The notes beneath the pieces were generated by a model that saw nothing but the letters and a program-made list of their open reading frames with translations, had not been told where the DNA came from and ran no database searches. A program made the position numbers and the translations under genes. A stretch of DNA of 64,000 bases from Obrimoposthia wandeli (taxonomy: Eukaryota), in contig CDROCS010002367.1 of the NCBI GenBank assembly GCA_977020255.1, positions 1-64,000 of the forward strand, given 5' to 3'. Shown here piece after piece: positions 1,126-24,149 of this stretch (within the stretch, counting starts at the first letter, position 1; every line of letters starts with the position of its first letter).

Positions 1126-1133
1126 TATTAAAG

Positions 1134-1151
1134 TGGTGCCCCGAGTGAGGA
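1134..1151 (+). promoter_or_regulatory. Primer binding site, complementary to the 3' end of elongator tRNA-Met
   Basis: TGGTGCCCCGAGTGAGGA is the reverse complement of ...TCCTCACTCGGGGCACCA, matching the animal elongator tRNA-Met 3' end as recalled (one position differs from the human form); 8 nt after the LTR end. Confidence 0.75.
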
Positions 1152-1925: not shown

Positions 1926-2571
1926 CAGTAAATTTGATAAAGTGAAATCGAGTGGATTGATAATCGAATTAATTAATTGAATAAGTTAAGTCAGGAGACT
2001 CTGTCCTAGAACTAAATAAAAATTTAAAAATCGTAAATAAATTTGATAAAGTGAGAATCGAGTGGATTGATACTCGAAGTAATTAATTGAATAGGTTAAG
2101 TCGGGAGACTCTGTCCTCGAACTAATTAAAGAGATAAATCGTAAAATAAGAATTGTGAAATAAGATAAAAGAGTAATAAGTAAATTGATATCGTAAACGA
2201 ATACATAATTGATAAGACAACGGATAATAGAAAAGGACCCGCGTATAATACTAGAAGACAAAGTCAGATTCCCAAGGAAGAGATAAATAATAATAAAGTT
2301 AACCGAATTGAACAGGTTCCCCAAACAGATAACAAAGTAACAGAAAAAGACTAGAGTCGAAGAAAACGTATCAGACAGAGACGTAAATCAATCAGCAGTT
2401 TCAACCGACAGTTTTGAGCTGACTGAGTTATTTGGTGAAATAAACCCAGAAGAAATTGATAATCTTGAAGTTCAAAACCCAGAAGAATTTGAAATTGCCA
2501 ATCCAGTAGTGATTGAAGAAGTTCAAGTAAATAATATTGAAGAAATAGTTGAAGACGATATAGTTGAAAAT

Positions 2572-4246
2572 ATGGCTCAACAAGGAGCTCCACCAGATAT
2601 TAATGCAGGAAATAATGTAGGTGAAATGAATGCCGAGCAGTTGGAACAAGCTTTAAATGCGACGTTGAGACCCAATTTTTCAGGATCATTGCAGATTACA
2701 AAGTTTAAAGGAGATGAGGAAAGTATTTGTGACTTCCTCGCAGAATATTCGAGTTGTGCAGATGTTCAAGGATGGAACGATAAAGAAAAATGTGTCAGAG
2801 TACAGGCACATTTAACCGGATTAGCACTTGAAGTGTATAAACATTTGACAGAAGCAGAACGCATAGATTGGCCAACGTTGGAAAATGCTTTTATTGGAAA
2901 ATTGGTATTAGGAGACTTAGCCAAAGTAAATAAGCGACTCATGAGAGAACGGAAACAGAAACATGATGAAGGCGTGAATGAATACGCGTATGTTTTGAGA
3001 ACCTTGGCCGCAAGAGCGTACCCATAAATCAGGACGGTAATCCTGTAGCTCCAGAAGCACAAGCAGCGGAAAATGACCGGAACCAAAATGAAATGGCAGA
3101 GGTTTTGTTAGATATATTTAGAGGAGGATTGAAAAGGGACATTAAAGTGTTATTAGCAGTATCGGATACAAATGATTTTGATAACGCCGTGCGAAAGGCG
3201 AGAGAGATTGAGAAAAATATAAAAAATAACGCAGCATTGGCAATTTACGCAATGACTGCAGGTGACGACGATAAGACAAAGGTCTTCGTGAATAAAACAG
3301 AACCGAGTAATTTTCAGAATCGAAATTATGGACAAAATAAGTTTGAAAAAGTAGATGAATCTAGTAACGGAAATAGAGATAATTTCCGAAGTAGGAATCG
3401 AGATGATTCGAGAGGTAGAAATAATAGTGAGTCTTGGAACAGGAATCGAGATGATTCAAGAGGTAGAAATAGTAATGATTCGTGGAATAGAAATAGAGAT
3501 GATTCCAGGAATAGATTTAATAGAGATAATTCAGGAAATCGCCAACCTTGGAGAGGAGACGATAGGAATTATAACCCAAACAGAGGAGAGCGAAGTGACT
3601 CTGGATTTGAAAATAATACAGGAAGTAGTGACGGAAGATTCAATAATCGAGGAAGCGGTTTTAAATCGAATTTCCGAAGAAATGATTTTAGAGGACGATA
3701 TGATAACAGACAGAATAGTCGTCGAGTACAGTTCGAAGATGAACAGAATAAGATAGATATTCGAGGGAGAATAATGTGTTACACGTGTAAACAAATGGGT
3801 CACTATTCGAGAGATTGTACGAGAAGTAAAGAGTTCGGAACTAACAGATTTGGAAATAATAATTTCGGTAATACTAATCTTGGAAATAATTATAGAGGAT
3901 ATAATTCACCCCGCCATGGAATAGAGGTGGTGGATATACTCCACAGCCATGGAGACCGAATAATCAGTATACAGATAGACAACAGTCACCAGGTAGATAC
4001 AATAACTATGCAGACAGACAGCAAGGAGCTGAGAGATACAATAATTATGTAGGACAGCAAGGAGCTGAGAGATATAATAATTCCGGTAGATATAATAATA
4101 ATAATGTTGACAAGACAAATAGTCGCGAGAGTTCGCCGAAACCGAAAGGAAATTTTAGTTATGTAAACGATGACAGCGATAGGAATCGCGAGACCGAACT
4201 TCGACGCGAAATAGATTTTGAAGATAGTGATAGTAAATTTGAACGA
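2572..4246 (+). CDS. gag: Gag: capsid domain, Arg/Asn/Gly-rich repeats, CCHC zinc knuckle (frame breaks at ~3025 and ~3910)
   Basis: ATG in good context at 2572; Ty3-like CA (KFKGDEESICDFL...WNDKEK...LTGLALEVY...W..L...F; FRGGL); CYTCKQMGHYSRDC at 3777-3818; after a -1 correction at ~3910 the frame runs directly into ORF 4247. Confidence 0.9.
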
Positions 4247-5955
4247 ATGTTGGGAATAATTAAAGATTCACCACATACAAAGATGGCGAATTCATCTACG
4301 TTGTCGAAACAAGAAAAAAGTCTACACTCGAGAGAAGAGATGAATGATTTAATGAACCAAATACTAGAAGCGTATGAGACACCAATAGAGAAAACGTGTA
4401 ACGCACAACCTATGACTGATCACATAGAAGCAGCAAGAAATGCTACGAGTATGGAAAATGTAGAAAAGATAATTAGTGAAGCTAAGGAGACGTTGAATCA
4501 ACCGTTAGATGAAACAAGTGAAGCTCCAGAAGTTTTGGCCAAATTGCAAACAATTAAAGTACACAGATTGGAAGAAGTGCGAGCAGAATTGGTTAAACAT
4601 AGTCATGATAACTTGGGTTACAAAGAAGTACCACGAGGATTATTGAAAAGATATGGTCGCTACGTACAGAGATCAAACCAAAAAGGAACGATGAAAATTT
4701 TGCTTCGATTAATTTCCGGACAGATTATACATGAAAAACTTAACGTGTATCAGACAATGAAAACGATTCGAAAAAAGTTGGCAGAAAAACTTGAAATTGA
4801 TGGAATGAATATGTTGTTCCATTATAAAGGAAGATCACTAGATGATGAGGACGTACCAGTCGAGTGTGGATATCCGATAGGAAACGAATTAGAGGAAAAA
4901 ATTGATGTCATCACTGTAGGACGTCAAGAGTTAGTAGATAATGAAGGATTAACAGAGATATTAAACTCTGCGTTAGAAATGATAAAAACGCCTATAGAAA
5001 TTTTAGACAGTTCAAGCGAAAGCGGAGATAATGATGTAGCTGAAGCTTGGAACAAGACATTCACACCAGAACCGTACGTAGCTGAATTACAAGACGTGAA
5101 TTTAGAAAATGAGTTGACGACTCCAGTGGTCGAAGTACCACCAGAACCAGATATAATTCAAATCAGACAAGATGAAGTCACGGATACAGCTAACCAAGTG
5201 AGACAAAACGAAAACGTAACCCAACTAGTAGGAGAAGACGAAATCTCCGAGATTGTAGATTTGGATTCACCAATTTGGCATGCTGCATACAGAGATAGAC
5301 AAGCAGAGCAGATGATGCGACAAAACGAAGAGATTGGCCATGAAGAAGGACCAAGTCAAGAGATACAGTATAATGGTGAACCGTATGATCCAGGCGAGAA
5401 TCAAACTGAGTATCAGTATTTTCGAAGAGGACCTGGAAGACCTAGAAAAGACGGGAGTATATTACGAAATGTTCTAACTGCACCACAGACTGATGAGGAG
5501 AGACATCTAAGCATTGGACAGTTAGCAGCGTCATTAGAGCAATATAGTACAGGAGCGGAATGAAGATATCAGAGGCGATATGAATTGGGAAGTTGCAAGT
5601 TGTACCGATCTACTTACGTGAATTCTAAGGCAAGTGAATCCAAAGTTGTTCAAAATGTACAAAAGATGAAACAACCGATATAACAGACAATTTGACTAAA
5701 GCAGTTAGATCACAAATGTCTGCAGTAAAGAGAATGACTGCGAATCATGTATACCATGCATCAATAGATAGATTTTATGACGGTGAAGTTTTAGCGAGAT
5801 TATGTGGAAACCAGACTACAAATAAAAAGTTAATTACAGCGATCACATATCTATGTTTCCAATTGACGGAACGAACGAGCCAACCTCACGAAGTCAAACA
5901 AGGAATAAATGAAGCGATGTATTTGATCGAGAATGTATTAGCAGAAACGAATTGA
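4247..5955 (+). CDS. Gag C-terminal extension with SUMO/ubiquitin-like domain (4691-4923), acidic linker and AT-hook (5423-5449)
   Basis: MKILLRLISGQII...LFHYKGRSLDDEDVP...EKIDVI resembles Ub/SUMO beta-grasp sequences; RRGPGRPRK is an AT-hook core; in-frame TGA at 5561-63 and a -1 break at ~5662. Confidence 0.6.
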
Positions 5956-6097
5956 CGAAAACGGAGGTTGGGCAAAATTAAGTGACTACGCTAAAACCAT
6001 TGTGGAAATGAACGAAGACGATGACGAACAATGTCATGAGAATAGTCAAAGAGAAAATAAACAATACTGTCCGAAAGAAAGAAATAATCAACCAAAT

Positions 6098-7970
6098 ATG
6101 TCCACAACAATGATGATGATGATGTTAGTAATGTTCATGGGAATGCAACAGGCATCAGGATTGATAGCATACGACTGTAGCATACCAAAGATGGGACAAA
6201 AGTATTCACTGCTTGACAGCGAAGACTGTCCAGAATCACAACCGTCAAAATTAGAAGTTAAAGGTGTTGAAAACTACTTTGTGTATCAGGATGTTGATAA
6301 AGTACAAGTAGAAGTGAAGAATGTGCAATCCATTCAAGTTATCACGAATTCTATTGTGGCCATAAAAGTTTTATGTCGGAAATCACACCTACCACACCGT
6401 ACAAGGCACATAAGGTTTTGCCGAGAGATTGCGAAGACGCATTTCGAACGGGAACGATAGAGGTAGACAAGAATTACAAACCTGAAGTAAAAATTGGAGT
6501 GAGACGATACGAAACAGTCACGAGAGTCGGACAACGATGGGCTGATGGATCTTGTGACGGAGAAACAAAAAACGTGCGTGGAACCAAAGTATCTGAGTTA
6601 GTAATGGACGTAACTTACAAAATCGACTTAAAAACATGGACCGCCAATTTTGATAAAAAGACACAACTAATGATGAAGTATCCAGAATGTAAAATGACAG
6701 ATACATCTTGTTTTACAGGCGAATCCACAATTGTGTATCAAGTGAATCCGAAGCAATGCTCTTTAGTATTTTTGAAAGAGATTAGTTTTAATAAAATAAA
6801 AGGATTCCTGTATAATAAAGATGGAGAAGGGTTCCTGTATAATAAAGTTGGAAAAGGATTGCTAAATGAAACAAGACCAATTCCAATGACAAAGACACCT
6901 ACACTGTTAATGGCAACATCAATAGAAGAAGGATTGATATTTATTAAAAAGAGAAACAAAGCGCGATGCGGAATGACTGTTAGTACTACAAACTATCCAG
7001 GAATAGTTTTGTCCAAAGAAGCAATAGCATTGGCAGAAACCAAGCTAAAACCAAAAGATATGCAGCTACACACGTATTTTAATAATAAAATTGATTTCTA
7101 TTATCATAAAGGATTGATGCAAATGGAACAGTTATATCGGATGATGATCGAAAGAGATTGCCAGCTAAACAAAGAGATCGTAAGAACAAAGTTAGCATTA
7201 GCTATTACGAATCCAGACATGGTAGCACCATTATTACCCTTGGATGAAGGAGTATTTGCTAAAACCATGGGAGAAGTATTGTATACTTACAAGTGTAATA
7301 AAGTAGAGGTACAGTTGAGAAAAACAGATCGATGTACGAGTGAATTAGCAGTAACGTATAATTTAAAAGATCTTTTTGTTGAACCAATCACGAGAATGTT
7401 ACTTCCAAAAGACACTCCAACTAAAGAAATCAGCTGCTCTAATATAATGGCACCTGAATATCAGATGACGAATGATCTATGGATAACGTTACCTGATCGG
7501 AAGCCAACGAAAACCCCAGCGATGATAAGAATGACGAATCTTAAAGGTAAAATGAAATTCCAAGCGGTGGAAAATATGGAGAACGCAGGATTGTACAATG
7601 AAAAAGATTTAAAAGCGGCGTGGAACGAAATAATGTTTCCAGTAAAAAGAGCCAGAGTACTTACGGAGATGGTACATCGAGCATTACCGCCAGGAGCTAG
7701 ATATGCGAATTTCGATATGTTATTATCGCCAAGTCATTTCAAGGAAGCAGCACATCAGACACTTAGAAAGATGTGGGGGAAATTCCTTGTTTTAGGACAA
7801 TTATTTTCGGGTATCATAGGTATTTATGTTATAATTAAATTTGTGCAGGTAATTATAGCCCAGGTGTTGTCTACGTATAGTTTATACAGGATAACCGGAA
7901 TCACCTGGCAACTTATAATTGGATGTTTTCCATTTTTAGCAAAATATCTAATGCACCATCATCACGAGAA
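6098..7970 (+). CDS. env: Envelope glycoprotein, chuvirus-like (class III, gB-like); frame break at ~6318
   Basis: Signal peptide MMMMMLVMFMGMQQASG then LIAYDC; after correction ECAIH...FYCGH; YFNNKIDF..., RDCQL..., GEVLYTYKC.KVEV, C..EL.V, LFVEPITRML, AGLY...IMFP, and two C-terminal hydrophobic segments all follow the chuvirus-like glycoprotein pattern. Confidence 0.85.
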
Positions 7971-8313
7971 CGAGTTAAGAGCCCTCAAGAAGGAACAACA
8001 CCAAACGAGAACCATGATGCGAGAACCAAGAAACTATCGAGACGACAACGACGACGATAATGATAGTCCAGGAGTATATGCAAAGATACCAGGAAAACCA
8101 AAGATTCCGTTACCAGACAAGGAAGAAGTGGCGTTAAACATATATCCAATGAAGGAACTAAAGGAGGAGAAGGAAAAGTTCAAGAGAGGCATCTTAATGG
8201 TAAGATGGCCTAAAGTGAGCTACAGTGAAATTCCACAAGCAGAGGAAAAAGACAAAAAAGATAATTCCAGAAGAATTCTGAAATCTAGGATATCAAATGA
8301 GAATCCAAATGCT

Positions 8314-8612
8314 CCACCACAAGTAGCAGTAACATTGAACGGAAGAGAATATCTTGCCGAGGTTGATACCGGATCTGCAGTATCAGTACTGAGTAAAGAA
8401 ATCTTGTCATCAAAAGAATTAAGAGAAGTATGTCCTAGAAAACAGACATTTGTTAACGTGAATGGTACAGATGTAGTGTCGGAAGGAACACTGAAATGTT
8501 CATTGAATATCGATGGAAGAGCATTGCAGTTAAATGCTAGAATATTCACAGATTGCGGTAGTCCAGTCATGATTGGGATGGACGTAATACGAATGTTTGA
8601 AGGAATAATTAT
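8314..8612 (+). CDS. Retropepsin-like aspartic protease 1, in frame with env
   Basis: LAEVDTGSAVSVL (DTG 8365-8373) and IGMDVI motif within ORF 6373-8931. Confidence 0.9.
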
Positions 8613-8844: not shown

Positions 8845-9840
8845 CCCATGAGATTCGAGAGAAAGAGACGAAATATATTAGAACAGTACTATTCAAAGAA
8901 ATGGCACGTAAAATGGCAAGATCAGGTTTAGAAATGTTAAACGCGACAAGTAGTTATGGTCATGAGGAAGTAGTACGATGCGTATGGTGTAGAGTAAAGT
9001 TTAGAGAGTGGGAAAAGAATGAGAAACCCAATGAGACGTCATAAAGAGATGCACCAAATTGTCCATTTCTTTTGAAACTAAAAACTTCAAACGTACCAGA
9101 AATCCAAACGGGAAAAGCACCCGATTTCGATTACAGTGACGGGATTCCAAAAGGAGAATCAGCTCTAATAACAGGTAGAGTAATAACGAATAGTCGAATT
9201 GAAGATATATTCGAAGTTATGCGAGAAGTGAACGAATGTGACGAACAGTATCGAGAAATAACCTTCGAAGACCCAAGACTTAAAAATTGGCAAAAAGGAC
9301 TTTTGCTATAAAAAAGGATGGTAAAGACGTAATTAAATGCCACAAGTGTAAAAAGAACGAATTATCGACAGATATACTCTTGAGCTACCTAAGAAAATTT
9401 TACATCATGAATTTTGCGAATTTTGTATTTTTAAAAACAAAATAAAGCAAAAAGAACAGAAAACCGAATGTATAATCGAATACCAAATCACACGGAAAGA
9501 GATTTTGGCTCAACAAGACACACCGGTAGTGTCATTCGTGAGAAGGTTATATCCAAAAGAAGCAGAAAGAATCAGAGAATTGGTAGAATTAAAAATAAAA
9601 ACTACGCGAAACGGATACGGATCGATTTTTGAATTACTGCGAGATAAAGATGACAGTACAATTGAAACAAAAGAGAAAGAGTACATAAATGAACTAGAAT
9701 ACGTACTAGAAGATCCGGAATGCGCAGTTTGCATGGTCAACAAAATAGAAGTTGCCTTTCTACCATGCGGACATGTAAGAACATGTCGGAGATGTGCGAA
9801 TGAAATGGTATCATGTCCAATTTGTCGAAGAATAATAGAT
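8845..9840 (+). CDS. Inhibitor-of-apoptosis (IAP) module: BIR, degenerate BIR, UBA-like, RING
   Basis: VRCVWC...W...P..(RH)KRDAPNCPF restores C-x2-C-x16-H-x6-C after a +1/-1 pair at ~9036-9046; second BIR-like D.IKCHKC...HHEFCEF at ~9260-9430; IRELVELKIKTTRNGYGSIFELL resembles the IAP UBA; CAVCM...FLPCGH..TC..CA.....CPICR at 9721-9828 is an IAP-type RING. Confidence 0.88.
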
Positions 9841-9949
9841 CGACAAGTGAGAAACATTAGATTTCACTATCCAAACAAAGGAAGTGGACTGACAGAGTGT
9901 AATAATTCGATAAATACAATATACCATATGGGAAACATAAATGGAGCAC

Positions 9950-12900
9950 AGCGACCAGCAGCTATCATTAGAGTAAATAATTTAAGAGTAAAAGCCTTAA
10001 TTGATACAGGTGCTGTAGCTTCGATAGTAAGTGAAGACTGTTTGACAGAGGAACAGAAACGAACAATGGCAGAACCAGATGAATTCTTGGTATCGGTCAA
10101 TGGAGACCCTGTAAAAGTGACAGGAATATTACCATGTACATTTATAATTGGACGTAATACGATCACTATACCAGTTAGAATCATGAAAGAATGTCCTGAA
10201 CCTACAATTTTAGGAATGGATGTATTATCACAACTCAAAGGGATAAGTATTGATTTACAAGATCCAAGATTGAAGGATAGCACATCAAACAGACAAATAA
10301 ACCAAATTGATGTAATTATAGAGAATCCTATAAAAATCGGTAAAAGATCACAATTTCTCATTCAAGGTCACACATTATCAGAAGATAAAGGACCAGTTGT
10401 GTTCGAACCATCACGAGATTTCATAGAGAAATACGAATTACCAGTTGTGAGTACAGTATGCCTGATCGAAAACCACAAAATACCAGTTAGACTGATGAAT
10501 ACAACCAACAATGACATTCTATTATACAGAGGAATGAGGTTGGGAAAGATAGCACAGATGGAGAATTCCACTGTATGCGCTATGAAACTCGATAAAGATA
10601 CGAATGATTACGAAGAAATAGTAATCCAATCAGAAAGACTGACAACTAGAGAAAAGAAACAATTACTTGATCTAATACATAAATTTCCGAAAGTAATTGC
10701 AAAAAATCCATATGACATAGGAGAAACACCTGTCATAAAACATACAATACCACTGACAGAAGACAAAGTAGTCAGAAGAAGACCATATCGAGTACCATTA
10801 CAATTACAAGATGAAGTAAAAAGTCAGATCGAAGATATGTCTAAAACAGGAGTAATTAGACCGAGTTTTCGCCATTCTCAGCACCTGTGGTGCTGGTAAA
10901 AAAGAAGGATGGGAAAATGAGATTCTGTATAGATTTCAGAGAACTGAACAAGATCACAAGAAAAGATGTGTATCCATTACCTAGAATCGAAGAGATGCTC
11001 GATAAATTGGGTAATTCAGATTATTTTACGACATTAGATTTGCAAAGTGGGTACTGGCAAATCGAGATAGAGGAAGAGGATAAACACAAAACAGCCTTTT
11101 CCTGCGGAGATGGATTATACGAATGCGAAAAGATGCCATTCGGACTGACAGGAGCTCCAGCAACATTTCAGCGTTGCATGAATTTTGTACTCGCATCGTG
11201 TGCAAACACGATGGTTTATATTGATGACATAATAATATTTTCGAAAACGTTCGAAGAACATTTAAAAAATCTGGAAGTTGTATTTAAAAGACTGGAAAAC
11301 GCTAAATTAAAAGTTAAACCTACAAAATGCGAATGGGCTAAAGAGCGAGTAACATTTTTAGGACATATAGTATCGAAAGAAGGCATTCGACCGGATCCAG
11401 CAAAGATCGAGAAAGTAAAAGCGCATTTAGCGCCAAAGACTGTTAAGGAGATACAGAGTTTTTTAGGTCTTGCGAATTATTATAGACGATTTGTTGAACA
11501 TTTTTCAGATATAGCAACACCATTGAGAAAGTTGACGAGGAAAGATGAGAAGTTCATATGGGAGAAGAAGCCCAACAAGCGTTCGAGCATTTAAAAGAAA
11601 GACTGATAAAAGCACCGATATTAGCGTTTCCAGATATAAACCGACAATTCATACTCATGACAGATGCAAGTAACTATGCTGTAGGAGCAGTATTGGGACA
11701 AGAGGATGACGAAGGAAGAGAACACGTCATCGCGTATGCGAGTAGAGGATTAAACAGAGCCGAAAGAGGATACTCTGTTATCGAAAAGGAATGTCTAGCC
11801 ATAGTGTATTCATGTAGACAGTACAGACACTATTTGCTAGGACAAAAAGTATTCCTGTATACAGATCACAAACCACTACAGTTCTTATATAAACATAGAG
11901 ATGAGATGAGTAGATTAAACAGATGGTTTCTAAAATTGGCCGAATTCGATCTAGAAATCCGTTATAGAACCGGAAAGTCGAACGGCAACGCAGATTGTTT
12001 GTCGAGATTGACAAATGTAGACGAGAAAGGAAACATAATTCCAGAAGAAGATGAAACCAATGACCAAAAGGAGAAGCAAATCTACTGACGATTTTGCTAA
12101 AAACGGGTAAAATAGACAAAGAAATCATCAAAGAACAGAAAGAAGATGAAGAGCTGAGTCTAATCAAAGAATTGTTGGTGAAAGGAGATCTAAACGATGA
12201 AATGACGAAAAAATACTCGATAAAAGAAGGAATCTTGTATATTGTCAATAATGTCGGAAAGATAGTAGTAGTAATTCCGAAGTCATTGAAAACAGCAGTG
12301 ATGATCCAGTATCACGACGGAACACTAGGAGGACATCTGTCAGGGCGAAAGACAATAGCCAGAATCAAAGAGAAGTACCATTGGGATGGTATGGAAGACG
12401 ACATAAAACAATGGTGTAAACAATGTAAAGTATGTTTAACCAGAAAAGACACCGGAACTCGTACTAAAGTTCCACTGAAACCAATGCCAGTTCCTTTGGC
12501 ACCAATGGAATTCACAGCGATGGATATATTGGGACCATTGAGAGAATCAAGTAAAGGAAACAAGTACGTCATAGTATTTACAGACTTTATGACGAGATGG
12601 GTAGAAGCATATCCCATGCAGAACCAGAAAGCTGAAACAATAGCGCAGATTTTAGTGGAAGAGATAATATTTCGATACGGAGTGCCTAGAAAGTTGTTAA
12701 CGGATCAAGGTAAGAACTTCACTGGAGAAGTCATAAAAGCAGTATCGAAGATATTCGGAATCATGAAGTTACAAACTTCACCATATCACCCACAGACAGA
12801 TGGTCTGGTAGAAAGGTTTAATAAAACTTTATGTATGATGGTACAATCCTATTGCTCAGACAAGCAAGAGGATTGGGATAAATATTTACCTTCATGTTTA

Positions 12901-13400
12901 TATGCTTACAGGAATTCAGTTCGAGAGGCGACGGGTCACACACCATTCTATCTGATGTATCTCAGACAGAACAATATGCCGATGGATCTGGAGTGGACCG
13001 AGCCAACATCTCAGTACCTAGAAACTGAACAATACATTGTCGTCATGAAGGAAAGATTACAAGATGCTTGGACCAAAGCCGGATTGAAGTTGAAATTCAA
13101 TCAAGAAGGTTACAAGGAACAATACGACAAAAAAGCAAAACCACATGAATTTAGAGTCGGAAATCAAGTGATGATATTTTATCCAGTCATCGAACCAGGT
13201 CTATCGTTTAAACTTCATAGACCATACAAAGGACCATACAAGGTGATCCAGACAACCTCAACAAATTTGAAAGTAATCAACGAAGAGAATCGGAACAAGG
13301 AACCGATGATTGTACATGCAAATCGATGCAAATTAGTACCAAATAAAGATAATGCGTCACGATATGAGTTAAGATCACAGAAATCGAAATCGAATACCAA
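9950..13400 (+). CDS. pol: Pol: aspartic protease 2, reverse transcriptase, RNase H, integrase (breaks at ~10868, ~11560, ~12082)
   Basis: ALIDTGA (DTG 10003); RRRPYRVP; VLVKKKDG.MRFCIDFRELN; YIDD 11217-11228; TDASNYAVGAVL and TDHKPL; IN HHCC, AMDILGP, TDQG, GLVERFN, GPY. Confidence 0.97.
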
Positions 13401-13521
13401 TACCATTAAACTTACACGAATGGTAAGTGATCGGAACTACATAAACATGATGACGAGTGGTAGCGAGAAAAAACCAGCGAGAATTGGTATGCTCAGAATG
13501 AAGTACCAAGAGGAAAAGGAA

Positions 13522-14495
13522 GTAATCCGACACATCGCACCACAAGAGATATTAGAAGAAGACGAAGAGATAATAGTCGTTTTCGAAAAAACACAACCAA
13601 CAGATGTAGCTAAAGAAGTCATTGTGAAAGATGCACTAACAAACGAATTTCTGTGCGAACTTAGAGTGTCATACTATGACGGAAATACACTAGTCGCAGC
13701 GCTTTATCAAAATTCCAATGTGTTTACGACTGAGAAAGTGATAATCGAAATCACATTGACACCAAACATAGTTGCATGGCAGAACTATGACAGTACTGAA
13801 GCAGGACTAGCCAGTCAGGAAGAAAAAGAACCGGCCGGTGGTCACATACTGCATGGTACACCAAAAAGACTCAAACAAGAATACCACGATGTAATAATGG
13901 TATTACGTAATTCACATGGGAAAAGAGATATCATGAGAGTCCATTTAATCGACGCTGACACTGAAAAGATAATTTGTCAGATGGACACCAAATACTTTGA
14001 TGGAAAGACAATTGTATGTTGTATACCAGAATCTCACCGGTTAGACACAGATCAAACGGAAGTATCTGTAAGGTTGAGCGTAATAGAAGGATTCCATTCG
14101 CCAACCCATCCGGAAGTGACTAACAATAAAATCATCAAAGCAACGGCAGAGTTACGCATTGACAGCGGATACCGAAAGTGGGAAGCTAAAATAAAAAACC
14201 ACAAAGAATCAATATGATCCGAGAACAAGTGACCAACTCAATCCAGCCAAAATATCATGCTGAAATAGTATCATCCGCGCCAAGTGTGATCACATCGATA
14301 AACGACGAAATTATAATTTTACTAAAAAATCGATGGCCGTCATCAACCGAAATACGAGTAAATTTAATTAATTATGCGAAAACACCGATATCTAAGCTGA
14401 ATGTTACCTATTTTGATGGATTGTCCATCATGGGTAAATTGGAAACAATTGTCATGTGCTATGGAGCACAGTTCCAAGTTGAGATACTTAAAGAT
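13522..14495 (+). CDS. Three tandem ~80-aa Ig-like (IPT/TIG-like) repeats after integrase
   Basis: Repeats at ~13522, ~13843 and ~14262 share I..xP....(D/E)(I/V)I(V/M/I), a V...D/N segment and Y(Y/F)DG.(T/S)(L/I). The repetition is clear; the IPT fold is inferred. Confidence 0.55.
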
Positions 14496-14951
14496 AGCGT
14501 AATACCATATCCGATTCACAAATACGAAGGGGAAATCAATCCAATTATTCTAACCCCTTCATTAATTTCAGTTCAGACAGACATACCAGAATACCCTTCG
14601 AGCGAGTCTAGTGAAGACAGCGAACCAGAAAGTAACGATACAGAATCAACAGAATCTGAAGATAACATAATAGAGCGATTCGGAAGAACCATGGAGGTTG
14701 AATTCGCTAAAGAGAGCAGAAAAAGACAAAACATAGAATTCGTGAAACAGAATATACAAGAAAGACGAATTAAATCAGCAGAAGAGACCGAGTCGGAAGA
14801 AGACTCAACAAAGGAACAGACACCAGAGACAAAGATGAATATCTCTCCAGCAATACGAATGCTGAGAGGAAAGAAACTGGCGAAACTATCCAACATCGAC
14901 GAACAGATAGAGAAGAGATTAGAAAGACTAAAACTTGAAGAGTCAGAATTA

Positions 14952-15380
14952 ATGCCACCAATGAGTGAGATCATTCCAGGTAAGTTATACCTCGGAAATG
15001 TGGAGGATGCAACAGATGAAAAGAAACTGTTGGAACAAGGGATAACATACGTGATCAACGTTACAATGAATCACAAATCACAATATCAGACAATCAGAGC
15101 TATGACATTAAGAGTAAAAGACTCAATGGACGCTAATCTTCTCGAATGGTTCGTAGAAACAAACGAAATACTTCACAGAGAACTCCGGAACCAAGGAAAA
15201 GTATTGGTACATTGTCAGAAAGGAATTTCTCGATCAGCAACTCTAGTATTAGCATACCTAATAAAGACTAGACGAATGCAGGTACTAGAAGCGCTAAAAT
15301 ACCTACAGGAGAGGAGAAGTATTGCAAACCCAAATCTTAATTTTTTGGGACAGTTGGCAAATTACCAACTTCTGTTGCAA
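14952..15380 (+). CDS. Dual-specificity (MKP/VH1-like) protein phosphatase with intact catalytic motif
   Basis: EIIPGKLYLG...GITYVINVT...VKD...VLVHCQKGISRSATLVLAYL...ANPNLNFLGQL; HCxxGxSRS at 15210-15236. Confidence 0.95.
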
Positions 15381-15477
15381 GAACAAAGACGGATGGATGA
15401 CATTCCTGAGGATCCAAAGGAAAAGAATTTCCTCCAAGCATTATCATTGACCGGGTTATTCTTAGCCGGAGTCGACA

Positions 15478-15900
15478 AAATTACACAGATAATGCCAAAA
15501 GTATTTTTATGTCATCCAGGAGATATAGACACTGCTGGATTAAAGTTCCACAGTATCAACCGAGTAATCAAAATTGTTGAAGTCGGAAACGAGATAATTA
15601 GTCTGTGTCAAAATACTGAAGACGACACCACTCGATACATACATGCTTCCAATCGAGAAATAAACGATGCACAACAACATCTGACGAAATTGACTCAAAC
15701 CATCCAAGCCGAAGTCACAGAAGGAAACGGCGTTCTGATATATCAGAAAAAAGGTACAATGTTAGCGCCAACCATAGGTGTATCCTTGTTGGTAGAGTAC
15801 CATGGTCACACGCCAGAAGAAGCGATGGTCTACATCAAACAGAATAGACCAGATACGGAATTCAAACCGTTACTCGTTCGAGAAATAGAGAAATACACCG
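15478..15900 (+). CDS. Second, catalytically dead DSP-like domain (pseudophosphatase)
   Basis: ITQIMPKVFL...INRVIKI...GNGVLIYQKKGTMLAPTIGVSLL...EEAMVYIKQNRP parallels DSP1 but lacks the catalytic Cys and Arg. Confidence 0.75.
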
Positions 15901-15944
15901 AAAAGAGGAAGCAACAACGAGAAACAAATTAAGCTACAACAACA

Positions 15945-18632
15945 GTGCCCAGCTTTCAATACCAAAGATTGCTAGCGATAGGCTTGTTAAGTTGTCTAAT
16001 GCCGATAACGGGAGCACAGGAGATAGGCTCCAACCACGGAAATAGTTCCTGGTTCAACGAAATCCACAATTACACCATACAGTACCATACGCCGGCACTG
16101 ATGATGCTATTAGTGTTGTTAGGACTAATTGATGTATGGATCATCCGAAAATGTCTTCGATCCGTGAGAACCGACAGTAAAAGATTTCAGTTTGTAAAGA
16201 TGAAAAGACCAAATGGACCAACGAACAAAGTGCTTGTGTATCTAGACGAAAGGATCGAAGACAACATAGTAAATGAAGCGATATTTTACCCACAAAACAG
16301 AATACTGAATCAATTTCGAATAGATTACGAAGCTGACCGACAGCGCACACTTGACCGAATATCAACAACATTCGCCGGATGCAAGCGAAGAAAACTAGTT
16401 GTAAAGGAAATACAAAAAGATGCTGATACAAAAGGACCAACGTATATATTCGACGGCGATGTCATCAAAACACGTGAGTATGGAAGTAAGAGAGTGATAA
16501 TTGAAACAATGGAAGGACATAAAACATGCTTGTCCGCCAAAAATGGATTCGGAAAGTTGACGATACAAGGTAAACCGGTACAGTTGATTATCGGAAGAAA
16601 TGGAATCGAGGAGATGTTAAAACAACGACAGACAACAAAACGATCCAGTCAGAAACAGATATCTCTCAAACGATTGATAATTAAAACCCTTTGCAAAAGG
16701 TCAGTCAAGGCCCTGTGCACCGTTGCACAAGGATTGATTTATGGAGTAGTAATTGGATTGGTACTGCAAGCCATGCCAACCAGTAAAGCCGAATTGATGA
16801 CACTATCCGAATATAATTTACATTTGAGAAATCTAGACAACACCCTAGAAATAATCAAGACATCCCACAGTAAAGCCGTGATGATCATGTGTGTAAAAGG
16901 ATGTCCAGGACGAATGTGTATAGTCCCAGCGACCGAAATGATAACACTTAATGGACATTATGGAATTAGTGTTGTCACATGTGAAGACTACATATTTGGA
17001 CAAACTAAAATAGTACTTCTCAGTGACATGTCCAACCAAAGTGCACACAAATTTAAAATATTAACCATCAAGAGTAAAGGAATACCAGCAGTACGTTACG
17101 GTATTCTAGAATTGGTTAATCCAATACTCGCACTGATCATTGGATTTATAATATTAATATTACTCATCTTGTTTTGTTGTACAAAGATAGAGTTGAGATC
17201 AAAAAAGAAACGTCATGATCTCGCAAGACGAACAGGTCAAATGAACTTACAAAAATTCAACACAATTATACCAAGACCACCATTTCTAGATGAACCAGCA
17301 CCAGAGTACCAGCCAACGATATATGAACATATCGAGGAAAGAACGTACTATATGAGTAATTTGACTTGTTTCATTGAAGTTCCTGAGTTTAGGAATCGAA
17401 CGATCATAGGAATCATGCTGATCATACAAATCACCACTACCAAGGCTAGTTATGAGATCATGATCAGTAAATGGAGACAAGACGTAATACGGGCAGTATA
17501 CATAGAAATCCCCCTTCTAAAAACAAATCACGTAGTAGACATTCATCTACAGATGTCAGCAACCGACAATATCGATCAGAAATTGTATGTCATCCGACAG
17601 GTCAGAATAAAAATCGACCAAAATACACCCGATTACAATTTAATATTATTGTATCATGAAAGAGTGTTATATCTACGGATAACAATATCAAAGAGGAAGC
17701 GGATTATCCAAAGTATCCGAACAAAGTCATTAATATTGCCTAGAGATGAGCGCATCTGGAAAATTGTCGACAGGATTATTATCACAGGTAGACGACGTAA
17801 AGCCGTATGGAATTCCGTTAGGATATTTTTCAGATTGCTAGAAACCGACAGAGTAACAGTAATGTGTTCCAACCCAGATGGCGGAATCAGATTCGAAATC
17901 CAAAGCCAAATGTTAGTACCACATTTTAACACAGAATGTCTGTGTAATCGAATTTCCAGTAATACTACAGAGACCTCGACCATAATCATGATAATAACAG
18001 GTGAAATATTCTACATAACTCTAAGATACCAGAACCGTCGATTTCGTAGATCCGGTATAAGTATCAAACCCAGGAAAATCATTCCCAAAAGGCCAATCCT
18101 AGTCAGAAAGAAGGCAAAAGTAAACGAAAGTAAACGTCATTCCAAAAAACCGACAGTGATCAGAACAAAGACAGAAGCGAAAGAAAAAGAGCTCAATCCC
18201 AGAAACCAAAGTACAATTATTAAGAGGACAAGAGTGAGGGGAACGATCCCACTAGATCCCAAACATCATTTCCAATCCAAAATAATAATACCTGTTCCAT
18301 CAGAAACAAAACACCCAAATCCCCGAATTTTTAGAAAATCGGACATAATACATGGAAACCGATCAAAACCCATGGAAATGTCATTCGAACCGACAAACAA
18401 CAAAATGAAGTATGATTATAAATCATCAGACAGCGGAATAACAGCGGTCAATGCCCTAATTGGAATGGCCGTAGTGTCAACAGCAGTGGTTCTATTGACA
18501 ATCGTGTGCGTGAAAGGCAGTCAAGTATGCCCAAGAATACGACGAAAATGCGAAGGATTGCGATGCTGTGACACACCCACCATGGAGGAAGTGGAATTGC
18601 GACCCTTACCTCCGCCTCCAATCAAGATATGA
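15945..18632 (+). CDS. Unknown multi-membrane-segment protein (signal-peptide / TM / tail units); in frame with the DSP ORF across TAA 15930-32
   Basis: 895-codon open frame with several hydrophobic stretches, signal-like ends (PITGA, PTSKA, TTTKA), Tyr motifs and a Cys- and Pro-rich C-terminal tail. Confidence 0.7.
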   Translation: MPSFQYQRLLAIGLLSCLMPITGAQEIGSNHGNSSWFNEIHNYTIQYHTPALMMLLVLLGLIDVWIIRKCLRSVRTDSKRFQFVKMKRPNGPTNKVLVYLDERIEDNIVNEAIFYPQNRILNQFRIDYEADRQRTLDRISTTFAGCKRRKLVVKEIQKDADTKGPTYIFDGDVIKTREYGSKRVIIETMEGHKTCLSAKNGFGKLTIQGKPVQLIIGRNGIEEMLKQRQTTKRSSQKQISLKRLIIKTLCKRSVKALCTVAQGLIYGVVIGLVLQAMPTSKAELMTLSEYNLHLRNLDNTLEIIKTSHSKAVMIMCVKGCPGRMCIVPATEMITLNGHYGISVVTCEDYIFGQTKIVLLSDMSNQSAHKFKILTIKSKGIPAVRYGILELVNPILALIIGFIILILLILFCCTKIELRSKKKRHDLARRTGQMNLQKFNTIIPRPPFLDEPAPEYQPTIYEHIEERTYYMSNLTCFIEVPEFRNRTIIGIMLIIQITTTKASYEIMISKWRQDVIRAVYIEIPLLKTNHVVDIHLQMSATDNIDQKLYVIRQVRIKIDQNTPDYNLILLYHERVLYLRITISKRKRIIQSIRTKSLILPRDERIWKIVDRIIITGRRRKAVWNSVRIFFRLLETDRVTVMCSNPDGGIRFEIQSQMLVPHFNTECLCNRISSNTTETSTIIMIITGEIFYITLRYQNRRFRRSGISIKPRKIIPKRPILVRKKAKVNESKRHSKKPTVIRTKTEAKEKELNPRNQSTIIKRTRVRGTIPLDPKHHFQSKIIIPVPSETKHPNPRIFRKSDIIHGNRSKPMEMSFEPTNNKMKYDYKSSDSGITAVNALIGMAVVSTAVVLLTIVCVKGSQVCPRIRRKCEGLRCCDTPTMEEVELRPLPPPPIKI

Positions 18633-18755
18633 TAAGTCAGATGAGGTTGTAGATAAATTAGTGTGTGAAATATGTAGAAATGTCTAGAAGCGATTGTACA
18701 AATAGTAGAAATATATAAAACTCATGTAGAAATTAATCATCATCATGTATTTAGA

Positions 18756-19055
18756 ATGTCCGAAGAATGCCCAATATGTTTGGAAGATCTAACCGAACGA
18801 AGAACAAGACCCGAAACCTGCAACCATTTACACCACGAGGAATGTTTATCGACATGGATCAGAACTTATGGACAGTTCGGACATCCAACATACCCTTGTT
18901 GCCCTGTATGCAGAAGACAATTCGCAAGATTCATCATGTTAGAACCCAACCAAGAGGATGTATATGTACAGGTGGTATTCTGTTGGAAGAATTTCGGAGA
19001 GTGTTGGTGTTATTACTGTTTGTCAGAACGACAAAATCCGACCACTTTTGTGTAA
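18756..19055 (+). CDS. RING-H2 protein 1 with extra C-x6-C-x-C-x2-C motif
   Basis: CPIC...CNHLHHEECLSTW...CPVCR; CWKNFGECWCYYC. Confidence 0.88.
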   Translation: MSEECPICLEDLTERRTRPETCNHLHHEECLSTWIRTYGQFGHPTYPCCPVCRRQFARFIMLEPNQEDVYVQVVFCWKNFGECWCYYCLSERQNPTTFV

Positions 19056-19115
19056 ACATCACACAACCACCAGTCCTCAATCGAGCCCAAATTCAACATC
19101 AACCCTCTCACAGTA

Positions 19116-19421
19116 ATGTCTGGAGAATGTTCCATCTGCTACGAGAGCATTGTGGACTTCTACACCAAGCCCAACAACTGCGACCACCTCTTCCACGTCG
19201 AATGCCTCGAGACGTGGATCCCCATTGCCAACAGCAACAATCCCCTCGACTTCCCAACCTGCCCGATGTGCAGAGCGACCTTCTCAGTACACTACGTGTA
19301 CAACCAGGACAGCCTCCAAGCAGTGGTACCCATAGTACACTGCTGGAAAACCATCTGCGATTGCTGGTGCTCGTTCTGCGTGGAGGAGCGAAGCACAGGC
19401 CAGCCCAACTCCCAACAATAA
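19116..19421 (+). CDS. RING-H2 protein 2 with extra C-x6-C-x-C-x2-C motif
   Basis: CSIC...CDHLFHVECLETW...CPMCR; CWKTICDCWCSFC. Confidence 0.9.
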   Translation: MSGECSICYESIVDFYTKPNNCDHLFHVECLETWIPIANSNNPLDFPTCPMCRATFSVHYVYNQDSLQAVVPIVHCWKTICDCWCSFCVEERSTGQPNSQQ

Positions 19422-19760
19422 TCGAAGGTAACTTTCTGACTTGAACGTGACATCATGAACTACCCTGTGTATCGCATACCGCGATAAATTAGCTACCATA
19501 ATTGTAATCATAATTATATAATCTTGTGAACTGTAAATTGACCATTACCATTTTTATGTATGATGTTTAACTGAAAATTGTAATTATTATACTGAAATTC
19601 TAAAAGACAATTTTTATGCTTAGTGTGAATGCGTAAACATGCCTAAAATCGGAACAAAACTCGGTAGGATTAAATAACTAAGGATTCGTTTTGAAATAAA
19701 ATTTAAATTAACGATGAGAACGGTGAACCCCAAATTGAAAGGAGTTATTTTCTTGTGCAG

Positions 19761-20258
19761 ATGAAGTGTACCGTCTGCCTCGAGAAAATTTGGACGGCAT
19801 CGGCATCCCCTGTCGGCTGCCGTCACAAATTCCACGAATCCTGCCTATATACTTGGGCCCGACTTCGACCCGAAGGACACGTCAATTGTCCATTGTGCCG
19901 TACTCCCTTCGCGGAATGGACACTGCAGTGTCGAGGGCGCCACAAGGGCACCCATTCGCTCACCAGCTGTATTGGTGGCGAGCACTGCCATTGCCCCAAT
20001 TGTATCGCGCGCCGTCGCGATGCAAAACTCGCCCTCCGCGAGAAATATCGGTCAACCCGCGACCCTCGCTCATGGCAGCGTGGCCGTCAAATATGGCTCG
20101 GAAATCGCGGAGTACACGGGCGGTACACGACCATTTTTCACCCGAGCCAACATCTCACCATGCACCAGCAGATGATACTGTACAATGGCGGCCCACCATC
20201 GTATCCAGAACTACCACTGGAGCAGGTCTTGCTGTTCCTGAAGGACAGGAACGGTTGA
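19761..20258 (+). CDS. RING-H2 protein 3 with extra C-x5-C-x-C-x2-C motif and basic tail
   Basis: ATG at 19761; CTVC...CRHKFHESCLYTW...CPLCR; CIGGEHCHCPNC. Confidence 0.88.
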   Translation: MKCTVCLEKIWTASASPVGCRHKFHESCLYTWARLRPEGHVNCPLCRTPFAEWTLQCRGRHKGTHSLTSCIGGEHCHCPNCIARRRDAKLALREKYRSTRDPRSWQRGRQIWLGNRGVHGRYTTIFHPSQHLTMHQQMILYNGGPPSYPELPLEQVLLFLKDRNG

Positions 20259-21069
20259 CATATCCCTGACAATCTTGTTGACATATCCCTGACAATCACC
20301 CTTAATCTTTTCTTGTGTGTAAATTTTTAGTTGTGATAAGTAATAGTGTATGGTTTGAGACTTGCTCCAAATTACACATTATGATTTCCACAAAAAACCG
20401 GGATTTTGAAAATTTTGTTTTGGGCTTGTTTGATGAGTTGAATGATTGATTTTGTAGGGATGAACCTAAAATCAACAGCCAGAGGCTAGTATAAGTAAAA
20501 TCGATACGTTCCGGGGACGTAACTTTTTTGGAACCCCCGAGGTATGTTAGGTTTAAGAATTAAGAAATTAAAATAATTTAGTCGATTAAATACTAAAATA
20601 AAAATCCTTGAAAGCAAGGTTGAAAATTAAATTAAATATTAATTTTAGATTCAAAATTGAAATTAGTGGAAGTTAGGATAAAAATTAGGAGGACCACGAA
20701 GGTCGTGTATAGTGTAGGATATATAAGGTTAGATTAATTAACCCAAAAGTGCAACAAAGGCACATTAATTAAAGCAAAAAGAAAAAGGGAACAATTTCGA
20801 ACGTCAATCAAGGTAAGCACATTTTCGTGCAGTTAAATTGGAGTACTTAAATTAATTTTTCAGCTGCCGCCAAAACTCCAGTTGAAACAGCTGTCGACAT
20901 TGCTGATTGACAGCCAAGGTTGAAGAAATCGACTATAAAAGTCGTCGACCAAAAAACAAACAGACACAACAGGAAAAATCAATACTTCAGATCGACTGAA
21001 GAAATCGACCACATATTGGTAAGTGGTGATTTGGTGAAATTTAGATTAAACCATTTTAGATCACAAATT

Positions 21070-21540
21070 GTTAAAGGAATACGAATCTATTGTTAAAGGA
21101 ATACGAATCTATTGTTAAAGGAATACGAATCTATTGTTAAAGGAATACGAATCTATTGTTAAAGGAATACGAATCTATTGTTAAAGGAATACGAATCTAT
21201 TGTAAAAGGAACACGAATCTATTGTTAAAAGAATACAAATCTGTTGTTTAAAGTTAAAAAGAATACAAATCTGTGGCTTAAAGGAATACAAATCTATTGT
21301 TAAAGGAATACGAATCTATTGTTAAAGGAATACGAATCTATTGTAAAAGGAACACGAATCTATTGTTAAAAGAATACAAATCTGTTGTTTAAAGTTAAAA
21401 AGAATACAAATCTGTGGCTTAAAGGAATACAAATCTATTGTTAAAGGAATACGAATCTATTGTTAAAGGAATACACATCTATTGTTAAAAGAATACAAAT
21501 CTGTAGCTTAAAGTTAAAAGAATATCAATCTATTGCTTAA
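21070..21540 (+). repeat. 22-bp tandem array GTTAAAGGAATACGAATCTATT with a ~140-bp higher-order duplication, inside the inferred 3' LTR
   Basis: 22-bp period seen directly; variant block repeated at ~21202 and ~21342. Confidence 0.9.
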
Positions 21541-21636
21541 AAGAAGCCGATCAGCTCAATAATCCCAACTAGACCCAGTACCGGATTGACGCAGTCGCAG
21601 CTAGTCGCAGCATATAGGTAAGAACACCGACTAAAG

Positions 21637-22075
21637 CATTCATTGCCCCTAGTTGGCAATTAGGATACATTCATTGCCCCTTGTTGGTAATTCGAAATTG
21701 TAATATATTTTAACCATATTCATTGTCCCTAGCTGACAATTAGGATTGCTGTCTCTTTAACCAAATCATTGTCCCTAGTTGACAATTAGGATTGTCCATT
21801 TTTATTCATTGTCCCCAGTTGACAATTAGGAATTGTACGAGTTTTTTCCCGTAAGATTCATTGTCCCTAGCTGACAATTCGGTTCACTCATTGTCCCTAG
21901 TTGACAATTCGGAACAAATACTCATTGTCCCTAGTTGACAATTCGGTCCACTCATTGTCCCTAGTTGACAATTCGGAACCAACACTCATTGTCCTAGTTG
22001 ACAATTCGGAGTAAGTTTTCATTGTCATCGTTGACAATTAGGTTGTTTGGGAATCATTGTCCACAGTGGACAATT
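21637..22075 (+). repeat. Palindromic CATTGTCCCTAGTTGACAATT array in the 3' LTR (~12 units)
   Basis: Same unit as 65-652 but fewer copies. Confidence 0.9.
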
Positions 22076-24149
22076 CGTGGTTAAATACTCAACAGATAGA
22101 GTTACGGACTCAAGAAACTTTATCCACACATAAGAAGTTGAGTCGAAGAAATTTAAGAGAGTTGCGTTATAGATTAACCAACCTAGGAAGAAGAATAACC
22201 CTAAAATCTCGATCACCGAACGTAAAATCGATACGTGGTTCATCCCCACTTCTTGTAGAGACTTACAGAAGTCTTAGGAATTTTACCATACTTTTTAGAA
22301 ATACGTACATAAACGTATTGTTGTGTTTAGTTACGTGAATTACCAATAAACAATTTCCTACATTAGAACAAGTTGTTTTTGCACCCTTCAGAATAAGAGA
22401 CATCAAATCAAATACCTTCAGATAGAACAAGAGATAGGCAACCATAACACGACCAACTTTAAGACCTGCTTCTAATCGAACTCACGTTGGGGCCCTCCGC
22501 AAATAAGAGGATCTGTACCAAGTTTCGTATAGAAACCCCAACATATGCACTAATTCTCTTTTTTATGTTTCTTTCAGTTCTATTAATATTATTATTAAAG
22601 ATAATAAAAAGAAAACAAATACAGAATGATACAGCAACAGGAAGATGACTACCCTAAACGAATTGAATTTTGCAGACTCAATTTTAATCATAGAAATTGG
22701 ATAAAAAATAATATTCAATGTAGAAACTGTTATAACCGTTATTATGATTGAATAGAAAAGGAACACCAATTCATAGAAAACCCTCCAAAATTTAATTTCA
22801 TAACAAATATGTGGACAGAATTCGAGATATTGTTATTATTACTCTGTCTACTATGCCTTATATTCATATTTACGAACAAGATGAAGCTTAAGAGCATCGA
22901 TTTGTGGCAGTTTGAGAAATGCTGGATACTGAATTGATAGATCACAGGATTGCCATGTCAGGTCCTATAGAATGACCTCTTCATAATAAGTTTTTCAGCG
23001 CAAAATGAAATATATGAAGAATTCCTTCTAAATATTTCCATTGTCTTGGTAAAACGAGCTATTAATACGATTGACAAGCGTTGTGGAATGAGTGTATAAT
23101 TATAATGGTGGTCAACTTGCATATTAGCACTTAAAATCATAGTATCTTCATTAAAATCCTCGGTCAAAATGGACAGCAACAAAACAGTTTTCTTAGACAA
23201 ATTTATACATCGACAAAAATTCTCACTAAAACCATGGATAATAGCTAGACATTCACACACAGGCAACCACACACACACATTTTAAAGAGCATATTTAACT
23301 TCTTGACATCCTGACCTTCATTTGGCATACTCAGCAATTAGTTACCAACAGTACAAGTTATTGCATTTTGATAAATATATCCACATATCTTCGGGCTTTG
23401 CCTGAACAGTGTCACATCTTAGTAAACATAAAATTTCCATGTGAGACTGTTACACAATAAAGAAAGGATAGCAACATACGAAACCCTACGGACGATAATG
23501 TTATATCACATGTGCTACGAAAGGTAAACAATCAGATCATTAATTTAGGACTGGCGTTTAACCTTCTTGAAGATTATCCCAAAAGAAAATTTTATATATC
23601 ATTATATGAAACTTAAAAATTATTGTTTATAAATTATTGAATCTATTCTTCTTTGAATAAATTCAAGATTTATTCCTGTTTATTTTATCGACCCTTATCT
23701 GTAATCATTCACAAATGTTTAGGTAAAAATGGGAATAACAGTAACAATTCACATTTTCCCAAAAATCCCTATTTAAAGTATAATATAAAATTGCATCATT
23801 ATTAAACATTTGTTGGGGTTTTCTTTTAGAACTTTAAAATCCTCGTATGTATGCTCCCAACGTCAGTTCTGTAGCGATAGGGGTTACAGATGAATGTGAC
23901 CTACCTGTTCTAGTCTCTGAAGGTTTTCGTTATTTGTTAAAGAGTTGTGCACAGAATAACGTAAAATTCCCTAAAGTTATTGTTGCTATGTGTGTAGCAG
24001 TCCTCTGATACGCAGTCTTCTAATACACAGTTCTCTGATACGCAGTCCTCTAATACGCAGTCATCAAATATCCTCCAACAATCTCCATTGAATCTCCAAG
24101 TTCTAATTACTAGTTCGGTCTCGTTCTAAATTATTGTGATATGAAATGA

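Follow-up and report, generated by a model that had tools for sequence, protein, structure and literature searches.

Two dual-specificity phosphatase (DSP) domains in tandem, the first (DSP1) active-looking and the second (DSP2) a homologue that, judged from its sequence, is devoid of all three catalytic residues, lie between the LTRs of a gag-env-pol Gypsy element of at least 22.5 kb in the 64,000-nucleotide stretch of DNA analysed here (the window). Such carriers are known, as are, each on its own, viral phosphatases and tandems of an active and a dead phosphatase; the DSP pair would thus be a new cargo of a known giant element. The pair is unusual, and it rests on one broken copy. The features of the element are, by position:

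26 to 1128, plus strand: 5' LTR, with a start possibly before the window start (aligned with 21601 to 22546)
1134 to 1145, plus strand: primer-binding site, with a TGG start (sequence)
2341 to 4052, plus strand: gag in two frames, a Retrotrans_gag-like region (Pfam PF03732 E 0.0065, below cut-off) and a CCHC knuckle (zf-CCHC E 3e-6)
4700 to 4870, plus strand: weak ubiquitin/SUMO-like domain (Pfam ubiquitin E 0.014, below cut-off)
5728 to 6010, plus strand: candidate BCL2-like domain (BH2-like GGW motif found by eye; frame break near 5950)
6107 to 8049, plus strand: env, located between gag and pol and split over two frames, a fusion glycoprotein of Monjiviricetes type (Pfam PF24664 E 1.8e-83 and 4e-6)
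8323 to 8592, plus strand: first aspartic protease, DTGS (Pfam E 6e-6; motif at 8365)
8901 to 9843, plus strand: IAP-like region with a broken BIR at 8901 to 9035 (Pfam BIR E 4e-4) and a RING at 9712 to 9843 (zf-C3HC4_3 E 4e-12)
9967 to 10233, plus strand: second aspartic protease, DTGA (Pfam E 5e-8; motif at 10003)
10860 to 13332, plus strand: RT, RNase H and integrase in Gypsy order (RVT_1 E 5e-40; RT_RNaseH E 6e-40; Integrase_H2C2 E 3e-19; rve E 2e-12)
13516 to 13776, 13843 to 14097 and 14253 to 14516, plus strand: three repeats with a Y[FY]DG motif, each about 90 aa long, possibly IPT/TIG (sequence comparison)
14590 to 14951, plus strand: acidic/charged linker with two weak MAPK-docking-like motifs (sequence; motif scan against shuffles)
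14952 to 15398, plus strand: DSP1, a dual-specificity phosphatase with intact D, C and R (Pfam, PDB search, alignment)
15471 to 15929, plus strand: DSP2, a DSP-fold pseudophosphatase with N, Q and L at the acid, nucleophile and phosphate-binding positions (Pfam, HMM, hhalign, ESM, PDB, model)
15933 to 18632, plus strand: 899-codon frame with no assigned function, in the frame of the DSP ORF with one stop between
18678 to 19055, 19056 to 19421 and 19707 to 20258, plus strand: three short RING-H2 ORFs (zf-RING_2 E 5e-9, 8e-9 and 2e-8)
21027 to 21559, no strand: 22-nt tandem array adjoining the 5' side of the aligned part of the 3' LTR (repeat family D1)
21601 to 22546, plus strand: 3' LTR (repeat detection and LTR alignment)

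The carrier displays all the features by which a Ty3/Gypsy LTR retrotransposon is recognized, namely LTRs, a primer-binding site, gag and the order PR-RT-RH-IN, in agreement with an earlier note on this DNA that had called it Gypsy-type. The primer-binding site has one mismatch to tRNA ends listed as Met_CAU and also to ends listed as 'others' in the available part of PMC13524379 (supplement 1). Alignment of the LTR pair gives 920 matches, 10 mismatches and 31 gaps, most of the latter being of 1-3 bases. Tandem arrays of short repeats at 130-610 and 21700-22030 occur in both LTRs in unequal copy numbers, and the leader holds a further array of 48-51-nt repeats (1197-1943). RT carries YIDD at 11217, and hydropathy indicates a transmembrane segment of env near 7780. 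Both aspartic proteases have an intact D-T-G, with the BIR/RING region between them; the BIR match falls just below the Pfam cut-off. Directly before env, at the place occupied by BCL2 in Burro, stands the BH2-like GGW motif of 5728-6010; Pfam and PDB searches of that place returned no match to a BCL2-like domain, and the same searches between PR and RT returned none to a dUTPase-like domain.

Many frame breaks run through this copy, including three in the RT-RNase H-integrase stretch (near 10880, 11570 and 12075), and the copy may be dead. Since the LTR pair differs mainly by small gaps and not by substitutions, the breaks may be assembly noise; core enzyme genes that are also broken, yet flanked by LTRs nearly identical in substitutions, make the pattern expected of gap-rich assembly error. 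On the 3' side of integrase, the order is three Y[FY]DG repeats, acidic linker, DSP1, DSP2, the 899-codon frame and the three RING-H2 ORFs. Pfam assigns no family to the 899-codon frame, which has some four segments that are hydrophobic by a hydropathy scan, contains a basic stretch of low complexity and may comprise several consecutive membrane proteins. The element's flanks are mostly 22-36% GC. Within this AT-rich DNA lie two GC-richer exons on the minus strand (33477-33914 and 36567-36959) from a host GPCR of the rhodopsin family (weak matches to Pfam 7tm_1 and Srw), and a fragment of a second Gypsy element (RNase H and integrase) occupies 56229-58237, with a 161-nt direct repeat whose copies lie 1848 bases apart. 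The low GC of the flanks and the GPCR exons are compatible with a flatworm host, without being proof of one.

Among known elements, planarian Burro/GYPSM1, as described in the available text of a review (PMC6431247), shares gag-CCHC, ubiquitin/SUMO-like, BIR and RING domains, the order PR-RT-RH-IN, accessory ORFs, tandem repeats and a mononegavirus-type fusion glycoprotein between gag and pol. Of the features that define Burro, those found here are an env between gag and protease (PF24664 E 2e-83) together with BIR, RING and ubiquitin/SUMO-like domains, the BIR and ubiquitin part resting on matches below Pfam cut-offs. The coding span of about 5,430 codons is near Burro's polyproteins of 4,873-5,140 aa (PMC6431247, same text) and fits a single polyprotein of about 5,000 aa, though this copy is frame-broken. 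Measured against the same description, the present element is shorter (about 22.5 kb versus more than 30 kb), MATH and ankyrin were not found in it, it has two proteases, and a DSP, a pseudo-DSP, a triple repeat and three RING-H2 ORFs follow its integrase. The same gag-env-pol order with a class III-type env is reported for GAG-ENV-POL errantiviruses of flatworms, nematodes and bryozoans; nine flatworm elements are listed, six of them from Schmidtea (PMC13524379, available part).

DSP1 is, to all appearance, an active dual-specificity phosphatase. Its match to Pfam DSPc scores 121.7 bits (E 2.4e-35; the cut-off is 33.5), and its catalytic set comprises a general acid D at 15120 and the C (15213) and R (15231) of a Cx5R loop, which reads HCQKGISRS (15210-15236). 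Among the 60 best of 76 PDB matches, its closest relatives are the catalytic domains of MKPs, with DUSP10 at 89 bits and DUSP4, 1 and 2 at 81-82 bits, followed by STYX (77 bits) and atypical DUSPs (60-73 bits). The top database matches are rhodanese-bearing MKPs with 39-43% identity. Compared with MKPs as a group (DUSP10/MKP5, DUSP1/2/4 and DUSP8/16, 89-76 bits), DSP1 has in common the D-C-R set and a C-terminal signature; it differs in being borne by a mobile element, in the dead second DSP that follows it, in an identity of at most 43% and in having neither a CDC25-homology domain nor a KIM. The N-terminal CDC25-homology (rhodanese) domain and the KIM define typical MKPs (PMC12428424, available part). 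Pfam detects neither in the 580-aa ORF or the integrase ORF, and the upstream side of DSP1 is instead made up of Y[FY]DG repeats and the acidic linker. DSP1 therefore appears to resemble an MKP catalytic domain, yet is not a typical MKP, so that the term 'MKP-type' used in the earlier note applies to its best PDB relatives and not to its architecture. A DSP tree was run on 39 rows, drawing on 36 of 147 DSP matches, with DUSP1/4/10 absent and a single flatworm row; it leaves DSP1 in an open fork, not grouped with MKPs, the bootstrap not being settled. A role as RNA 5'-phosphatase was considered and rejected, PIR1 and baculovirus BVP being absent from the 60 best of 76 PDB matches. The loop motif of PIR1 and BVP differs from that of the DSP pair.

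DSP2 has the layout of a DSP, as the earlier note had observed, and five sequence tests support its homology. The Pfam DSPc match (E 1e-5, 25.8 bits) is below the cut-off of 33.5. Against 1.84 billion representatives, all four matches are canonical DSPs (23-28% identity), and all 23 PDB sequence matches at E<=10 are of PTP/DSP type, the best with E 5e-4. Comparison by hhalign with a 24-row DSP alignment that excluded DSP2 gives a probability of 94.5% (E 8e-8, 140 columns), and ESM features place DSP2 at 0.95 to DSPc clusters. On a family HMM built without either element domain it scores 49.0 bits, against 9.7 for the best of 1000 shuffles (980 reported) and 3.2 for the reversed sequence; a chance motif was rejected, given how far below DSP2 the shuffles score. 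An AlphaFold2 model, which was built on a DSP alignment of 25 rows and leans on it, shows good confidence along most of the domain (pLDDT 82), and its top 50 structural matches are all PTP/DSP-superfamily folds, led by STYX (Z 15.2, rmsd 2.8, 135 residues) with many active DSPs within 1 Z unit. A single-sequence model of the DSP1-DSP2 tandem reaches a pLDDT of only 35.5.

At the catalytic positions, DSP2 has N (15651) in place of D, Q (15744) in place of C and L (15762) in place of R, the loop reading YQKKGTMLA (15741-15767); the serine after the invariant arginine position is lost too, and two lysines stand in the loop. The search of 1.84 billion representatives gave no relative sharing this dead site. 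DSP2 should not be able to hold phosphate, because the P-loop arginine has been lost in addition to the cysteine and the acid.

Both loop motifs lie in one stop-free frame of 580 codons (14190-15932). The region marked out in the earlier note, 14952 to 15900, begins exactly at DSP1, whereas DSP2 extends slightly further, to 15929; the pair is correctly placed downstream of integrase, but in a different frame from it. The integrase frame runs from 12064 to 14217, and the two overlap at 14190-14217. Several observations suggest a single polyprotein. The Y[FY]DG repeats form one family spanning the frame break, the first two sharing the frame of integrase and the third that of the DSP pair (23-25% identity; between-frame pairwise E 0.001-0.004). 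The core enzymes are broken in the same way while the LTRs are nearly free of substitutions, the assembly-error pattern noted above, and 7 of the 9 closest integrase relatives continue in frame past integrase. Fusion of the DSP pair to the pol polyprotein is accordingly likely, but the earlier note's description as pol cargo is too firm as worded, the pair and integrase being in separate frames in this copy. Translation as an ORF of its own is also possible, given an ATG that overlaps the stop of integrase (14214-14217). A host gene beside the element was rejected, as the pair is intron-free, lies between the LTRs and has the element's base make-up.

Base composition at third codon positions indicates long residence. 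Third-position A amounts to 45% in DSP1 and 41% in DSP2, which matches gag, env, RT and IN (39-43%), so the DSPs appear to be old residents of the element. The RING-H2 ORFs RING2 and RING3 have 17% and 19% A and 57% and 37% C, unlike the A-rich element; because their third positions are C-rich and A-poor, they are probably recent captures from host genes. DSP1 and DSP2 share 16% identity, no DSP in the tree is more than 24% identical to DSP2, and the branch of DSP2 measures 8.4 changes per column; with so low an identity and so long a branch, duplication and double capture are not separable.

As a proxy for drift, 37 non-element DSP domains were drifted stop-free to DSP2's distance from the family in 1110 simulations. 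DSP2 keeps 31 of 36 hydrophobic core columns, against a fraction of 0.65 +/- 0.08 under stop-free drift, and 8 of the 1110 runs equal it, in a control biased toward DSP2, whose alignment was fitted, with no re-alignment of the simulated rows. Conservation of the polar columns of DSP2 does not exceed drift (31 of 44, equalled by 972 of 1110 runs), and only 1 of the 1110 runs would have escaped a stop.

Searches for a sibling of the pair covered proteins up to 2000 aa, a range in which a whole Burro polyprotein could not appear. Among proteins of 572-2000 aa, 61 matches from 3612 candidates were all of ordinary DUSP type (at most 39% identity and 54% coverage), and among those of 179-571 aa, 82 matches from 2759 candidates reached 43% at best; no sibling pair was found in either range. 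Another tandem-DSP architecture is seen in P0146, a 484-aa protein whose C2HC zinc finger is flanked by two DSP domains, both intact. Of 331 integrase matches, the 120 listed include no named Burro sequence, none with PF00782, none passing the DSP family HMM and none with a BLASTP match to the post-integrase cargo. The nine closest of these 120, with 46-55% identity, lie on contigs of 1.9-8.4 kb, on which ORFs further downstream are not visible. Seven of the nine run in frame for 85-422 aa beyond the common post-integrase motif, and their tails vary, two (P0151 and P0153) having extra aspartic proteases and two looking membrane-anchored by eye. Because these tails differ and none of the 120 has a DSP, the post-integrase position appears to be a slot in which this clade carries varying cargo, the DSP pair being one filling of it. 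One relative, P0149 (55% identical in integrase), is labelled as coming from a Turicibacter MAG and is probably eukaryotic retroelement DNA binned with a bacterium.

Taken as a whole, our preferred reading, a tentative one to which we assign a probability of about 0.42, is that DSP1 dephosphorylates a host JNK/p38-type kinase after release from the polyprotein, with DSP2 as a phosphate-independent docking or stabilising partner. The pair would be long-held accessory cargo of a Burro-like element, belonging to a host-steering kit with the IAP-like, ubiquitin-like and RING modules. It would be synthesized as an extension at the C-terminus of the polyprotein and freed by an element protease. DSP1 would then act on a host protein of stress or immune signalling, for which a MAP kinase of the JNK/p38 type is the likeliest candidate, and the cell would come to tolerate expression of the element. 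DSP2, presumably unable to bind phosphate, may serve as a phosphorylation-independent docking or stabilising domain that compensates for the absent CDC25-homology/KIM domain, much as the dead D2 does in receptor PTPs. In the D1-D2 tandems of receptor PTPs (PTPRK, LAR, CD45) an active phosphatase is followed by a dead fold-mate in the same order as here; those are classical PTPs, most of whose D2 domains retain the cysteine, and the likeness is one of analogy and not of membership. The same holds for Cdc14, in which an active phosphatase is also joined to a dead fold-mate and the dead domain comes first. In PTPRK, D2 recruits substrate without need for phosphotyrosine (PMC6440744, available part). 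The direction of the effect of DSP1 could go either way, since a viral DSP that bears the MAPK-phosphatase signature, PTP2 of baculovirus, promotes apoptosis and does not block it (PMC5923475, available part). Prediction of a DSP1-DSP2 complex without alignments scored 0.00, which is no evidence either way, and the docking-like motifs of the linker are common by chance, 768 of 2000 shuffles giving at least one start and 65 at least three.

It seems unlikely that DSP1 instead acts on proteins of the element itself (Gag, the Env tail or integrase) or as a particle component, with DSP2 as a partner in structure or dimerisation. With an env in the element, particles are possible, into which the likely polyprotein fusion would carry the domains, and among the ESM and Foldseek (BFVD) neighbours of DSP2 small viral DSPs predominate. 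A parallel is given by poxvirus VH1 and baculovirus PTP, both of which are particle components. However, DSP1 is most like cellular MKP catalytic domains, no poxvirus or baculovirus chain is found in the 60 best of 76 PDB matches, and the adjoining cargo is host-directed.

The upstream repeats bear on a further and more doubtful proposal, in which DSP1 targets a non-MAPK host immune regulator of the STAT or Rel/NF-kB/NFAT type and is aimed by the repeats as IPT/TIG decoys. IPT domains are the dimerisation domains of Rel and NFAT, and the repeats could be Rel/NFAT-like decoys, one of them lying within the DSP frame; by ESM features, all 30 of 30 matches carry TIG (0.90-0.91). Yet the ESM recognition value (1585) is below the mark of 2300, neither Pfam nor PDB profile searches find IPT/TIG in the repeats, and TIG domains are present in many unrelated surface proteins.

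Slightly less credible again is that DSP2 has no function and is left over from an old duplication or from a second capture, stop-free merely as a spacer. Its long branch and low identities, a Pfam score under the cut-off and a dead site shared by no relative would all suit such a relic, but its hydrophobic core is kept beyond drift, its model is confident across most of its length, and the stop directly after it means that no downstream frame is seen to depend on it. That DSP2 is a STYX-type substrate trap or anti-phosphatase gripping phospho-substrates is the most improbable of these alternatives: the nucleophile is replaced, the two loop lysines could bind an anion and STYX is the top fold match (with active DSPs close behind), but substrate traps retain the phosphate-binding P-loop arginine, as in the PTP mechanism and in STYX's loop, and DSP2 has L at 15762 and has lost the next serine as well. 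Of the substrate trap or scaffold offered by the earlier note, a docking scaffold is thus judged likelier from the missing phosphate-binding arginine.

A bolder version of the preferred reading, in our view as unlikely as the particle role, is that an enveloped retroelement evolved its own MAP-kinase off-switch, in which the docking domain of a captured MKP was replaced by a dead DSP and the pair was fused behind Rel/NFAT-like IPT decoys at the end of the polyprotein. This would make a combined anti-JNK/p38 and anti-NF-kB module, conserved across the Burro-like family and, if true, otherwise known only from large DNA viruses.

The earlier note knew of no DSP as Gypsy pol cargo, and the literature searched contains no precedent. 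No paper among the literature matches listed describes a DSP in an LTR retrotransposon, in a coverage without the original Burro paper, its supplement and Repbase, where some Burro phosphatase could already be listed. The available text of the Burro review has no mention of 'phosphatase' (PMC6431247), nor has the available part of PMC6338049; the main text of PMC13524379, as far as available, mentions neither phosphatase nor Burro and contains no discussion of accessory cargo. The viral DSPs and PTPs (baculovirus PTP2, polydnavirus PTPs, poxvirus VH1 and giant-virus DSPs) are, like the present pair, parasite-borne phosphatases. The viral enzymes alter host signalling and appear among the BFVD fold matches; they differ in being single-domain genes of DNA viruses, whereas here a reverse-transcribing element carries an active-plus-dead tandem.

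In Burro, the additional domains relate mainly to apoptosis and ubiquitination (PMC6431247, available text). Burro-type elements have been suspected of meddling in these host processes only via binding and ligase domains, and a signalling enzyme, being simple to assay, permits a direct test. If the preferred reading is true, phosphatase-based host manipulation reaches from DNA viruses to LTR retroelements. An active-then-dead DSP tandem would also add to the few known pseudophosphatase architectures and bear on the role of a phosphate-blind dead DSP. In planarians, stem cells and regeneration are under the control of JNK, p38 and ERK; should the host be a planarian, a MAPK phosphatase carried by the element could influence the stem-cell and regeneration pathways that depend on these kinases.
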